Positions 55,362-64,000 are shown, counted from the first letter of the stretch. The stretch is 64,000 bases of DNA from Dictyostelium discoideum (GCA_000004695.1 CM000152.2:4672001-4736000); one strand, 5' to 3'. Program-made: numbers and translations. Notes: a model not told the origin generated them from the letters alone.

Positions 55362-55600
55362 GAAAATATTATTGGTGGTCGATTTTTCTTTAGTTTTTAG
55401 GAAACTTTTTTTTTAAAGAGATTACTGTTGGTGCTCAAGATATTTCTTTAGGTTTTAGGAAACTTTTTTTTTTAAAAGAGATTATTATTGGTGCTCAAGA
55501 TATTTCTTTAGGTTTTAGGAAACTTTTTTTTTAAAGAGATTACTGTTGGTGCTCAAAATATTGCTTTAGTTTTTAGGAAACTTTTTTTTATTTTGAAAAC
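55362..55600. repeat. Minisatellite of about 59 bp in 4 tandem copies (unit roughly AAAGAGATTACTGTTGGTGCTCAAGATATTTCTTTAGGTTTTAGGAAAC(T)n).
   Basis: Four contiguous copies at 85-95% identity, immediately upstream of the duplicated promoter of SAP-family copy 1. Confidence 0.8.
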
Positions 55601-55822
55601 TCCCATTTTTTTTTTTATTACAAAATGTTTTTTCGTTTTTTCTCAAATCTGAAACCTTTTTATTTCTCAAATACCCAAGAATTATTTACTTTTTTTTTTT
55701 TTTTTTTTTTTATTTATTTTTTTTTTTATTTATTTATTTTTTTTTTTTTTTTTTTTTGTAATCATCCAAGATAATATTGAAACTATTTATTTATACAAAT
55801 AAAAAAAAAAAAAAAAAAAAAA

Positions 55823-56653
55823 ATGGGAGACGATGAAAGTGATAATAATAATAATAATAATAATAATAATAATAATAATAATAATAATAATAATAATAAT
55901 AATAATAATAATAATAATAATAATAATAATAATAATAATAATAATAATAATAAAAATGAAATACTATTTTGGAAAGTTTTTAGAAATATATATATATTTA
56001 AATATATATTTTCAAATTTCAAATATTCGGAATATTCGGAATATGATGAATTAGATTCAATTGATAATATCATTAGAGATTATAAAAATGGTATTGAAAT
56101 AATTAAAGATAAAGTAAAATCAAATAGTTCTTTATCTTTTGGTAATACTAAAAGTTTAAAAATTATTTTTGAAAATGTTAAAGAAACTGAAGAAAATCAA
56201 TTATTTTTAACTCAATTTATAAATAATTATTGTTTAAATTCAAATCTAGTTGGAGATATTTTTAATTGTATAATTAAATCATCGAATTTAATGGCATTAA
56301 CATCATTTATTAATATTTATAAATCAAATACAAGATTTAAATATCAAGGTGTTTTAATGAAAATGAATTTATTTATAGAATTTAAATTGGGTGAATTAAT
56401 CAATTTCTTAAAAAAATTTGTTAAAAATCGTCGGTATGATATTAAATTAAAACTAAAAAAAATTGAAGATTATCAATTTTCTGATTTAGAATTAAATGAA
56501 AATTTATTTATGCTTTTAAAACCATTAATAAATTGGGATACCAAAAACGAAAATATTAGAGAATCAAAATATACTATCAATAAAAGAAATGTAGTTTTAA
56601 AATATATCCATATATTTTTAACAATTGGATCCACTCAAGTAAAAAAAAAGTGA
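55823..56653 (+). CDS. SAP-family paralog copy 1: a truncated member that lacks the SAP domain and the C-terminal half.
   Basis: MGDDESDN followed by about 37 Asn from (AAT)n, then [15 protein letters not shown]...KVKSNSSLSFGN...EENQLFLTQFINNYC...YQFSDLELNENLFMLLKPLINWD, collinear with copy 2 at 57488. About 200 bp of upstream promoter sequence and the first codons ([11 protein letters not shown]) are duplicated with copy 2. The ORF stops at 56653, just before repeat island B. Confidence 0.6.
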   Translation: MGDDESDNNNNNNNNNNNNNNNNNNNNNNNNNNNNNNNNNNNNKNEILFWKVFRNIYIFKYIFSNFKYSEYSEYDELDSIDNIIRDYKNGIEIIKDKVKSNSSLSFGNTKSLKIIFENVKETEENQLFLTQFINNYCLNSNLVGDIFNCIIKSSNLMALTSFINIYKSNTRFKYQGVLMKMNLFIEFKLGELINFLKKFVKNRRYDIKLKLKKIEDYQFSDLELNENLFMLLKPLINWDTKNENIRESKYTINKRNVVLKYIHIFLTIGSTQVKKK

Positions 56654-60730: not shown

Positions 60731-61269
60731 ATTAATATTACGAGCATTAAAAAAAAAAATTAGAACAAACAACATTTAATTTTGTATTTAAACCATAAAA
60801 ATTCCTGCCTATTTAAAAAAAAAAAAAAAAAAAAAACAAATTAAAAGAGAATATATTTTAAAAAAAATAAAAAATAAACTTTATTTTATTACTATTAAAT
60901 TAAATATTATTGTTATTCTTAATCAAATATATTTTAACAAAAAAAAAAAAAAATAACCCCATCCAAATTAATAATAGACATTTTTTTATAGATCTATGAT
61001 ATTTGAAATTTGATTTAGAAAATTTTGAACATCTTTAAAAATAATATTTAGTTAAAAAAAATTAAATTTGAAAATAAAAAAAAAAAAGCCTTTTCGAATA
61101 TTTAAATTATCCTTTTGGCAATTAAACCCATTTATTTTTTTTTTTTTTAATTTTTTTTTATTTTATTTTATTTTTTTATTTTTTTTCTTTTTTTTTTTTT
61201 GGTAAGACCACTTTTTAATTTTTTTTTTATTTTTTTTATTTTTTTATTTTCAATAAATTGGTTAGAAAA

Positions 61270-64000
61270 ATGAATAAAAGAACAAGAGATAAGAATGACC
61301 TAGATTTAAATGAAGAAGAGGGAATTAATAATAAAAAATTAAAAGAAGATAATGATAGTAGTAGTAATATTGTTAAAAGTTATGAAAATGAATTTGAATC
61401 GTTTAAATTAAAGAAAATAGGAGGGGAATTATCAATAAAAAAGTTACAAACAATTTTAAAAGATATTGGATTACCACATAGTGGTAGAAAAGTTGATTTA
61501 ATTAATAGAATAGAACAATATTATAATATTAAAATCAAATTAGAAAAAGAAGTTGAACAACAACAAAATAATAATCCATTTAATAAAAGCCAACCAATAT
61601 TATTAATTAAAAATGATTATGAAATACCATTTTGGAAAGTTTTTAGAAATAAATCAATATTTAAAAATATATTTTCAAATTTCAAATATTCAAATATATT
61701 TAATTATTCAAGATTATATTCAGTTAATAATATTTTTAATGATTTTAATAATTGTATTGAAATCATTAGAGATAAAGTAAAATCAAATAGTTATTTAGCA
61801 TTTAAACAAATTAAAGATTTAGATGAATATAGTATAAAAACCAATGAAACAACAGACGAAGATGGATTAATAAAGATTTTAGATAGCTTTAAAGAAGAAA
61901 CTCAAGAAAATCGATTATTTTATACTCGATTTATAAATAACTATTGTAATAAATCAATTCACCCTTTAATTTTACTTGGTAGAATCGTTAAAGCTTCAAA
62001 TTTATTAGCATTAAAATCATTTCTCAATACAGAAATATATGTTAAAAGTAAAATTCAAATTAAAATTGAAATTAACAAATTTTCAGATTTACAAATCTTA
62101 GAGTTTTTAATTAATAAATACTATAGAAATAATGATGATAATAATAAAAAAGAAAAAGAAAGTGAAAAAGAAAGTGAAAAAGAAAGTGAAAAAGAAAAAG
62201 AAAAAGAAAAAGAAAGTGAAAAAGAAAAAGAAAGTGAAAAAGAAAAAGAAAGTGAAAAAGAAAGTGAAAAAGATAGTGAAAAAGATAGTGAAAAAGAAAA
62301 AGAAAAAGAAAAAGAAAAAGAAAAAGAAAAAGAAAAAGAAAAAGAAAAAGAAAAAGAAAAAGAAGAAAAAGAAGAACTTATTCAAAAAGATTTAAATGAA
62401 AATGAAATTGATAATCTTAAAAAATTAAAAGAAGGTAGTGAAGGTAATGATAATGATAAAAAAAAAGATGAACAAGATGAAAATTTAGTTTTTATTGAAT
62501 CAATTCGTATAAATGATTTCAATATATTTAAAGAACTTAAATTAGGTGAATTAATTCATTTAGCTAAAACAATATATCAAAATGAAAAAATTGTTAAATT
62601 ATTAGAATTACCAACCTATCATAAAGTTTCAATAGATTTTCCAGAATACATCTTTTTTTCATTAGGTGAAGAATTTAAAAATGATTATATTATAGAGAGA
62701 ATTAGAGAATCCAAACTTGATTTTTCAAATAAAATTAAAGAGGGTTTATCTTTTTTTAATGAAATTAAAGAATTTCAATTTACAGATAAAGAATTAAATG
62801 AAAATTTATTTATGCTTTTAAAACCATTAACAAATTGGGATAGACATTTTTCAAAATTAAATGATAAATATAATAATAATAATAATAATAATAATAATAA
62901 TAATATCAATAATAATAGTAATGAACAAGGTTGTGAATTATCATTAGTAAAATATAATATTTTAGAATTATATAATAATAAATTAAGAAAGAATTATCAA
63001 AGATTAGAAGAATATTTTAGATTTCAAAGATATGAATTTGCTCAAAAAGATTTTAAAGAAATTTCAAGTATTCATAAGGAACAAATTGAAATTGAAAAAG
63101 AAATTGAAAGTTTATTTCAAAAAGAAAATGAATTTATTGAAAAACAAAATGAAAAAGATAGACTTCTTGAATCGGATGAAATTTGTAAAAAGAAAAAGAT
63201 AGTATTAGGTTACATATTTTTACTATTCAATTTATCAATGCCAAGAAGGAAACCAATTGAATATTATCTATCTTTTAAAGATGAAAAAAAGGTCATTGCA
63301 TATGGCACTCAAATGAAAGATGAATTTTTAAATTATGGTATACCAAATAATGAGATACTAAGTAGAATTTCAGAGATTGGGTATGGGTCAAATACAAGAG
63401 ACCGATTTAAAATGATAATGAATTCAAAGTTTTTAATTGAAAAGCCATTTAAAGAACATTTTATTAATCCATTGAATTCACCTTTAATCATTGCCAATGT
63501 TAAATCAAAGGATATGTTGGATTTATTATTTAAAAATTTTAATCAACAATTCTTTAAAGATAATAATAGAAATTGGAAATATTGTAATAGTATAGAGATT
63601 ATAGAATATTATGAAAAGTTAATGCAATCATTGGGTAGAAAATTCTTATTCTCTTTTGATTTTGCTAACCGTTGTACAATAGAATGCAAAGGAATTGATA
63701 TTTATCCAAAACTATTATCAAGAGCAATCAGTAATCCAACACTTTATAATCATAGTTCAAATCTTGCTCCAAAAGAAAGATTATTAAAAATCAATGATAG
63801 AACCATTGTAAAACAAAGAGCATTCCTATCGTTATTAGAATTAAATTATTTTAAAACTATTACATTTGACCGATCTTTTACTTTTAACAAATATTCTTAT
63901 AAAATTTCAAGATGGATTTCTGATAATTGTATTTCAAATATATCAAAACTCAATTTTAATGATAATGGTTATACAAAAATTAAAATTCAATTACCAAATA
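61270..64000 (+). CDS. SAP-family paralog copy 3. More than 910 aa lie within the window and the open frame continues past the window end.
   Basis: ATG at 61270. The frame was verified codon by codon to 64000 with no stop; it is absent from the ORF track only because it runs off the end. It has a classic SAP domain (GELSIKKLQTILKDIGLPHSGRKVDLINRIEQYY) and the family core ([84 protein letters not shown]). It also has a (GAAAAAGAAAGT)n coding minisatellite at 62143..62375 (SEKE/KEKE repeats) and poly-Asn at 62870..62910. Confidence 0.7.
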   Translation, partial: MNKRTRDKNDLDLNEEEGINNKKLKEDNDSSSNIVKSYENEFESFKLKKIGGELSIKKLQTILKDIGLPHSGRKVDLINRIEQYYNIKIKLEKEVEQQQNNNPFNKSQPILLIKNDYEIPFWKVFRNKSIFKNIFSNFKYSNIFNYSRLYSVNNIFNDFNNCIEIIRDKVKSNSYLAFKQIKDLDEYSIKTNETTDEDGLIKILDSFKEETQENRLFYTRFINNYCNKSIHPLILLGRIVKASNLLALKSFLNTEIYVKSKIQIKIEINKFSDLQILEFLINKYYRNNDDNNKKEKESEKESEKESEKEKEKEKESEKEKESEKEKESEKESEKDSEKDSEKEKEKEKEKEKEKEKEKEKEKEKEEKEELIQKDLNENEIDNLKKLKEGSEGNDNDKKKDEQDENLVFIESIRINDFNIFKELKLGELIHLAKTIYQNEKIVKLLELPTYHKVSIDFPEYIFFSLGEEFKNDYIIERIRESKLDFSNKIKEGLSFFNEIKEFQFTDKELNENLFMLLKPLTNWDRHFSKLNDKYNNNNNNNNNNNINNNSNEQGCELSLVKYNILELYNNKLRKNYQRLEEYFRFQRYEFAQKDFKEISSIHKEQIEIEKEIESLFQKENEFIEKQNEKDRLLESDEICKKKKIVLGYIFLLFNLSMPRRKPIEYYLSFKDEKKVIAYGTQMKDEFLNYGIPNNEILSRISEIGYGSNTRDRFKMIMNSKFLIEKPFKEHFINPLNSPLIIANVKSKDMLDLLFKNFNQQFFKDNNRNWKYCNSIEIIEYYEKLMQSLGRKFLFSFDFANRCTIECKGIDIYPKLLSRAISNPTLYNHSSNLAPKERLLKINDRTIVKQRAFLSLLELNYFKTITFDRSFTFNKYSYKISRWISDNCISNISKLNFNDNGYTKIKIQLPN

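Follow-up and report, generated by a model that had tools for sequence, protein, structure and literature searches.

The final part of a 64,000-nucleotide stretch of Dictyostelium discoideum AX4 chromosome 3 (4,672,001-4,736,000; hereafter the window, in which position x corresponds to chromosome position x + 4,672,000) carries a head-to-tail series of related genes on the plus strand: two intact genes (copies 1 and 2), a pseudogene (psi1), and a third gene, copy 3, which continues past the end of the window and is the published gene sma. A first-pass annotation had described three open reading frames (ORFs) and one pseudogene in tandem; all four lie where it placed them, and each block that it quoted as conserved falls in a conserved column of the family alignment. 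The paralogy of the copies is far beyond chance (BLASTP E-values of 3e-81 for copy 2 against copy 3 and 2e-37 for copy 1 against copy 2). Collinear DNA repeat families found in a direct-repeat scan (D8, D10, D13, D16 and D18; 67-94% identical) join the copies, nucleotide identity in block A among copies 1-3 and psi1 is 80-94%, and the relation of psi1 to the others was also recovered by tblastn. We consider it very likely that the sma gene family forms a tandem cluster here that evolves by birth and death, with paralogs both rewired and lost.

The cluster region has a GC content of 12-24% and contains poly-Asn tracts, as is typical for Dictyostelium; a tblastn search of window positions 1-55000 found no further family member. 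Comparisons were made with the assemblies GCA_054883475.1 (stretches L001 and L002), GCA_054859385.1 (L003), GCA_054859355.1 (L004), and GCA_054859205.1 (L005). Over its final 3.1 kb the window matches a 6.43-Mb chromosome of the D. discoideum assembly GCA_054883475.1 at 99.87% identity; over 18.2 kb, window and assembly show only six non-homopolymer differences. The isolates represented by L003, L004 and L005 (labelled D. discoideum or D. cf. discoideum) show about 88-95% DNA identity to AX4 at this locus, flanking housekeeping genes included, a divergence that looks more like that of sister species than of strains.

Table 1. Features of the sma cluster (window coordinates unless a stretch is named; TRF, Tandem Repeats Finder)
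Feature	Position	Strand	Remarks
58-nt tandem repeat	55345..55589	.	TRF, 4.2 copies, 87% matches; upstream edge of the transplanted copy-1 module
Promoter/5'-untranslated region (UTR) module of copy 1	55598..55822	+	95-100% identical to copy 2 module (alignment, megablast 95%, sliding identity)
Copy 1	55823..56653	+	Intact 276-aa ORF: MGDDESDN, poly-N(35), N-module only
Tandem repeat in copy 1	55842-55957		(AAT)38.7, TRF
Promoter/5'-UTR module of copy 2, native	57278..57487	+	74% identical upstream of L003 copy-2 ortholog
Copy 2	57488..59902	+	Intact 804-aa ORF, full-length family member
Tandem repeat in copy 2	57507-57557		(AAT)17, TRF
SAP-like segment of copy 2, degenerate	57713..57808	+	Loop Gly/Lys replaced by acidic residues (DENEND)
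N-module of copy 2	57899..58627	+	Helical domain opening with near-invariant FWKVFRN
SGISSG repeat in copy 2	59377-59419		18-nt unit, TRF
C-terminal module of copy 2	59420..59878	+	Ankyrin-like repeats (…QIAELFFVF…)
Pseudogene psi1	60144..60730	+	First ~190 codons of a family member; stops, frameshifts, 66-nt insertion, remaining ~2.6 kb lost
GC-rich ~66-nt insertion within psi1	60610..60676	+	Core 60632-60674 = G-quadruplex p193
sma upstream region	60731..61269	+	Last ~100 bp homologous to region upstream of copy 4
Copy 3 = sma (DDB_G0281803)	61270..64000	+	First 910 of 1216 codons; ORF end at L001:4048
SAP domain of Sma, canonical	61429..61524	+	Residues 54-85, LSIKKLQTILKDIGLPHSGRKVDLINRIEQYY; Pfam PF02037
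SEKE/KE low-complexity insert of Sma	62147..62376	+	TRF, 12/18-nt repeat units
psi2, second family pseudogene	L001 8872-9512		Beyond the window, after pirin N-terminal piece

Copy 3 is the sma gene

Extended through GCA_054883475.1, copy 3 becomes a 1216-aa ORF, the same length as the published Sma protein (PMC3625868); and because three primers from that study match exactly and at unique sites, within copy 3 and at its 3' end (window 63718-63738, L001 4009-4030, and L001 4025-4044), copy 3 is the published sma gene. The first-pass annotation had not recognised the family, which is not entirely new: sma is a characterised gene, and the pseudogene psi1 most likely corresponds to the annotated dictyBase entry DDB_G0281631 (identifier from Table 2 of PMC6511855).

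Sma was identified through a restriction enzyme-mediated integration (REMI) insertion "immediately upstream" of the gene, and was described as a protein of 1216 aa with an N-terminal SAP domain and two nuclear localisation signals (NLS), nuclear by default and recovered in the membrane fraction and as soluble nuclear protein, not with chromatin (PMC3625868). At high density it moves to the cell periphery, and during chemotaxis to folate it shifts to the poles, next to F-actin; it lowers cell-cell adhesion and is required for ampA mRNA and for development beyond the mound, with knock-outs showing better chemotaxis, clumping, loss of ampA mRNA, and arrest at the mound stage (PMC3625868). The same paper reported "no known homologs" for Sma, plus GBD-FH3 and PTEN-like domains from Motif-Scan.

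The SAP domain proposed in the first-pass annotation is found in copy 3 by Pfam PF02037 (E 5.6e-8; 32.7 bits against a gathering cutoff of 23.9), so that the result which that annotation had named as refuting it did not arise. GBD-FH3 and PTEN-like domains gave no match when full-length Sma was searched against Pfam at E<=10 (SAP and low-complexity noise only), nor did they appear in fold searches. Only sma passes the Pfam SAP threshold: copy 4, a further member beyond the window (P0001), scores 17.4 bits, under the cutoff, copy 2 has no Pfam SAP match at E<=10, and in copy 1 the SAP segment is absent altogether. The claim of a SAP-like motif in copies 2 and 3 and the pseudogene is therefore sound for copy 3, which lies above the Pfam cutoff; the motif quoted for all of them is that of copy 3, and its counterpart in copy 2 is degenerate.

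Upstream homology links sma to copy 4, as a blastn alignment pairs window 61165-62100 with L001 9894-10837, upstream part included. The SEKE insert differs in length between Sma and its ortholog P0004. Within sma, the window and GCA_054883475.1 differ by substitutions at 61888, 61913, 61928 and 62746, all of them amino-acid changing (F/I, R/Q, R/Q and L/I, respectively); since P0004 sides with GCA_054883475.1 at the first three of these sites, the window's alleles there may be either derived or old sequencing errors.

A dictyostelid protein family with a private N-module and an ankyrin-like C-terminus

An exhaustive profile search yielded 63 family representatives (clusters at 50% identity) at E<=1e-3, 21 of them at E<=1e-30. 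All members checked for their source are dictyostelids, nearly all from group-4 Dictyostelium (D. discoideum and close relatives, D. purpureum with 15, D. firmibasis, and D. dimigraforme), together with one weak match from Tieghemostelium; several matches outside this pattern are generic ankyrin arrays (three confirmed by Pfam) that match the C-terminal module only. The family is thus essentially restricted to group-4 Dictyostelium, in keeping with the suggestion that it was amoeba-specific.

The architecture of the family starts with a basic N-terminus and a SAP domain, followed by a private helical module marked by the motif FWKVFRN (the N-module), by variable low-complexity or coiled-coil inserts, by a middle region, and by an ankyrin-like C-terminal module. 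The differing low-complexity insertions noted in the first-pass annotation are genuine tandem repeats by TRF. The N-module is the signature domain of the family and can be modelled with good confidence (pLDDT 79); no relative was found by sequence or fold. An F-box was considered in view of the FWKVFRN motif, but Pfam gave neither an F-box nor an F-box-like match, and a reading of the module as a run of degenerate ankyrin units was rejected (profile-profile comparison with hhalign, probability 1.7%). Over the C-terminal module (about 100 residues), by contrast with the N-module, matches of the family profile to pure ankyrin arrays number 38, 17 and 13 per protein; the hidden Markov model (HMM) of the module finds the arrays P0019, P0031 and a third protein (P0055/P0065) at full-sequence E-values of 5e-95, 7e-57 and 7e-34, with 21, 16 and 11 significant repeats, respectively, at HMM positions 51-103, and Pfam Ank_2 matches the first two of these arrays at E 0 and 7e-249. 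The family profile found no match among PDB sequences. A fold assignment for the whole of copy 2 was attempted and set aside (AlphaFold2 pLDDT 60, pTM 0.36; Foldseek against PDB gave nothing below E 0.066).

Extent of the cluster and turnover among isolates

The cluster proposed for the window is correct within it and incomplete, as beyond position 64000 the array goes on with a further pseudogene and a fourth gene. Downstream of sma in GCA_054883475.1 come four gene models without relation to the family (a minus-strand gene of 290 aa, the C-terminal piece of a pirin gene, an ependymin-like gene, and the N-terminal piece of a pirin gene), then psi2, and next after it copy 4, whose AX4 protein is Q54TP0, annotated as "SAP DNA-binding domain-containing protein".

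Composition of the cluster differs between isolates. L003 carries orthologs of copies 1 and 2 followed by other members, and its copy-2 ortholog is an intact 767-aa ORF, 83% identical to copy 2 over the tblastn match and 89% over conserved blocks. In L004 the place of psi1 is taken by a full-length member of 1097 aa, and there sma adjoins copy 4. In L005 the orthologs of copies 1 and 2 are fragmented. The only member found intact in all isolates where its position was covered is sma.

The intervening gene models show some peculiarities. The pirin gene is apparently split (L001 5268-6277 and 8431-8763) with the ependymin-like gene between the pieces, its N-terminal fragment is fused to psi2 in one gene model, and the pirin C-terminal gene model contains a 65-nt piece of the family's SAP-linker region (L001 5881-5945) that is 94% identical to copy 2.

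Selective constraint on the copies

The ratio of nonsynonymous to synonymous substitution rates (dN/dS) was calculated by the NG86 method on conserved blocks of orthologs. With the caution that NG86 ratios and simulation figures are rough in a 78% AT genome, and that dS for copies 1 and 2 (0.065-0.083) lies below that of the control (0.127), dN/dS rises from 0.21 for the neighbouring ArfGAP control through 0.32-0.36 for sma (orthologs intact in L004 and L005), 0.50 for copy 4 and 0.70 for copy 2 to 1.59 for copy 1, the fastest-evolving member. The most constrained member of the family is thus sma, which is also the only one with a canonical SAP domain, and the rapid evolution claimed for the family is borne out by these ortholog comparisons. 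The control, an ArfGAP-type gene (53524-55134) directly upstream of the cluster, has long Ser/Asn low-complexity tracts and is otherwise ordinary; the GBP gene, tried as a second control, was invalid on account of its introns.

These figures invite the view that, apart from sma, the cluster is junk, and that copies 1 and 2 are unexpressed relics whose frames stayed open by chance, in which case the locus would amount to a single known gene with three pseudogenes. Their elevated dN/dS relative to sma, the truncation of copy 1 and its lack of a SAP domain, the fragmented orthologs in L005, and the absence of their exact products from the protein collection all fit such a view. However, when the observed number and spectrum of substitutions were simulated, the frame stayed open in only 1.3% of cases for copy 1 (p=0.013) and 0.05% for copy 2 (p=0.0005), and all four indels between copy 1 and its ortholog are multiples of three. 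The copy-2 ortholog of L003 is also intact, and copy 1 has recently gained a complete promoter with an in-frame start codon. Since simulated frames rarely stay open and the copy-1 indels are in frame, copies 1 and 2 do not appear to be simply decaying, and we regard the relic explanation as unlikely, if the strongest of the alternatives.

A promoter copied from copy 2 onto copy 1

Copy 1 has no SAP domain and is truncated after the N-module; copy 2, whose ORF is also present in GCA_054883475.1, is without the internal coiled-coil and acidic/Thr-rich inserts and begins with an acidic (MGDDESDN) instead of a basic N-terminus. As the first-pass annotation observed, the two share about 200 bp of upstream sequence (CTCCCA…GTAATCATCC) and their first 8 codons, which are near-identical apart from one synonymous change (GAC/GAT), a 24-nt indel, and the lengths of T-runs.

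The accompanying claim, that the duplication unit included the promoter, is contradicted by how the identity is distributed. In the best-conserved block the body of copy 1 is only about 80% identical to any of the others, against 91-94% among copy 2, psi1 and copy 3; yet the roughly 225 bp upstream of copy 1, together with the first codons and the poly-AAT tract, are 95-100% identical to those of copy 2, with sharp boundaries. In L003 the module stands upstream of the copy-2 ortholog only (74% identity) and is absent at the syntenic copy-1 ortholog P0009, which has an unrelated promoter, another N-terminus and a SAP-like segment, and the same C-terminal truncation as copy 1. A single duplication carrying the promoter along, with the promoter staying similar ever since, would explain the identity upstream and in the first codons, and upstream homology shared by other members (psi1 with copy 4, copy 3 with copy 4) is consistent with it; but it would leave the most divergent body of the cluster beside a nearly unchanged 5' module, and would not account for either L003 ortholog. 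We judge such co-duplication very unlikely for copies 1 and 2, where the sequence comparisons already contradict it.

Because the bodies are about 80% and the module 95-100% identical, and because in L003 the module occurs at the copy-2 ortholog only, the module is instead native to copy 2 and was copied from there onto copy 1 later. The 74% identity of the L003 module is lower than the identity of the two modules within one genome, which places this copying after the lineage split, in the AX4 lineage. The 3' junction of the transplant lies in the AAT repeat, with the SAP segment of copy 1 thereby deleted. As a repeat similar to the 58-nt tandem repeat at the upstream edge also precedes the copy-1 ortholog in L003 (L003 9700-9870), this repeat is older than the transplant.

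Two further features were observed around copies 1 and 2. The spacer between them contains about 290 bp (56800-57090) of higher GC, whose minus strand has coding-like frames (such as …SGNGETSTIQTDIDGFQYQFVVISYDSVVESTG…) together with a hydrophobic C-terminal segment; L003 lacks this stretch, and no match to it was found elsewhere in the window or in the fetched loci. In the automatic annotation of GCA_054883475.1, an 865-aa gene (L002 11654-14781, equivalent to window ~57488-60603) splices copy 2 into psi1; this fusion is probably an annotation artefact, the 804-aa ORF of copy 2 and its own stop being intact there.

Pseudogene psi1 and the G-quadruplex p193

Because the L005 ortholog of psi1 is an intact ORF of 1072 codons, psi1 must have died recently, in the AX4 lineage, losing about 2.6 kb and gaining a GC-rich insert. 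The core of this insert, a 43-mer, matches base for base the published G-quadruplex (G4) p193, and is now situated 596 bp before the start codon of sma. This match also fixes the position of the window on AX4 chromosome 3; landmarks of the insert are absent from isolates L003, L004 and L005. p193 was described as a parallel G4 with a melting temperature of 56 C and assigned either to the promoter of sma or to the 3' UTR of pseudogene DDB_G0281631, and the ligand AuMA lowers sma mRNA about 1.5-fold (PMC6511855). Other readings of the insert, as an RNA gene (no Rfam match, and only a modest hairpin with z -2.3) and as foreign DNA (no plasmid match), were rejected.

The pseudogene shows further details. 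An in-frame TAA of psi1 ("RI*QYY") is present in both the window and GCA_054883475.1, and an extra G at window 60347 is absent from the latter, which thus has one frameshift less. The insert (60620-60676) has GAAGAGGGGA and GAGACAGGGGGA in common with p40, a G4 in a PEBP promoter on chromosome 4 (PMC6511855); the two sequences are contiguous in p40 and 25 nt apart in the insert, which also holds an internal repeat, G(C/A)GACAGGGGG. There are hints that p193 and p40 may belong to one dispersed G-rich element family of D. discoideum.

That the units are themselves the cargo of a mobile element, with the cluster built by transposition rather than by local duplication, is scarcely credible: it would suit the multiple copies and many pseudogenes of the family, the small pieces of it lodged in other gene models (L001 5881-5945, and psi2 beside the split pirin gene) and the short GC-rich insert in psi1, but the copies follow one another collinearly and head-to-tail and keep their synteny across isolates, Pfam scans of the members scanned gave no transposase, integrase or reverse transcriptase, and the direct-repeat scan (inverted repeats not scanned) showed no terminal repeats around the units.

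Discussion

Several points weigh against our reading of the region as a birth-and-death cluster with rewired paralogs and distinct roles, beyond the roughness of the dN/dS figures and the low dS of copies 1 and 2 given above. At least one lineage can do without copies 1 and 2, as both orthologs are broken in L005. The sole assembly that annotates copy 2 fuses it to psi1, and the exact products of copies 1 and 2 are not in the protein collection; poly-N words limited the first word-indexed search, and in the word-indexed protein search the N-module alignment gave one match and a low-complexity-free fragment of copy 2 none. On the Pfam ankyrin models the C-terminus of copy 2 stays below the 27.3-bit cutoff (Ank_2, E 0.022, 15.8 bits), as does the best-scoring family member (P0006, 21.9 bits). 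DNA contact by the SAP domain of Sma is an unproven prediction, set against the soluble, non-chromatin behaviour of the protein (PMC3625868). Finally, the expression and localisation of copies 1 and 2 are predictions from sequence, and the view of Sma-family proteins as non-enzymatic adaptors is drawn from their architecture.

As such adaptors, the proteins would use the SAP domain and basic N-terminus for nuclear retention and for weak contact with nucleic acid or chromatin, and the helical and ankyrin-like modules may serve as binding sites for partner proteins at the cortex. For copy 2 we predict a variant that is mainly non-nuclear and does not bind DNA, because MGDDESDN replaces the MNKRTRD of Sma, the SAP loop is acidic, and NLKKIN replaces the basic NKKRKN of Sma. 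Copy 1 would be a short form consisting of the N-module only, now co-regulated with copy 2 under copy 2's promoter.

A bolder proposal, to which we give a little less credence than to the relic explanation, is that the sma cluster is a self-tuning regulatory module and not a set of redundant copies. The NLS-less copy 2 and the SAP-less copy 1, driven by the same transplanted promoter, would then serve as competitors or dominant-negative partners in the cytoplasm, regulating the amount of Sma that moves from the nucleus to the cortex; selection on copy 1 would be diversifying (dN/dS ~1.6, with its frame kept open), and dead psi1 would have been co-opted as an upstream regulatory region of sma through its lineage-specific G-quadruplex insertion. 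If this were true, rapid turnover that varies from isolate to isolate could contribute to social or kin-related differences among strains, as Sma controls cell-cell adhesion.

Returning to the birth-and-death cluster, its consequences for work on sma are practical. A gene published without homologs has intact paralogs within 1.4 to 10 kb and dozens of relatives in group-4 Dictyostelium, which bears on the reading of sma-null phenotypes (possible redundancy or antagonism) and on the design of knock-out and quantitative PCR (qPCR) reagents. The claimed FH3 and PTEN-like domains of Sma are unsupported here, and the absence of p193 from related isolates offers a natural presence/absence test of its regulatory role. 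One member, sma, and the G4 insert of psi1 are already in the literature; new here are the sma paralogs, the revised domains of Sma, the promoter transplant from copy 2 to copy 1, the birth-and-death history, and the G4 as a lineage-specific insertion. The locus is a compact, well-resolved case of birth-and-death evolution and promoter transplant in an extremely AT-rich genome; nothing in it is surprising in kind, and the finding is genuine and largely ordinary.

Comparison with known systems

The closest known system is Sma itself, of which copies 1 and 2, psi1, psi2 and copy 4 are paralogs, with the N-module, middle region and C-terminal module in common; they differ in that copy 2 is without the canonical SAP loop or the basic N-terminus and copy 1 without SAP entirely. 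The statement of "no known homologs" (PMC3625868) contrasts with the 63 representatives found here. For the G-quadruplex, the sequence at 60632-60674 in the psi1 insert is identical with p193 (Saad et al. 2019, PMC6511855), treated there as a promoter or 3'-UTR element and here as an AX4-lineage insertion in a dead sma paralog.

Among SAP proteins that shuttle between nucleus and cytoplasm, the MKL1/myocardin family (SAP structure 2kw9) and SARNP/Hcc-1 (2do1) offer themselves for comparison. Unlike these, the Sma family lacks a transcription-factor architecture of the RPEL, basic/Q or coiled-coil kind, no homology to the remainder of the protein was detected outside Dictyostelium, and Sma is not in the chromatin fraction. 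With ankyrin scaffolds (Pfam clan Ank: PF12796, PF00023) the family shares a C-terminal stretch of about 100 residues that matches ankyrin arrays repeatedly under the family profile, whereas it has only about two degenerate repeats, which fall below threshold with the Pfam models, beside an N-module that is not ankyrin-like.

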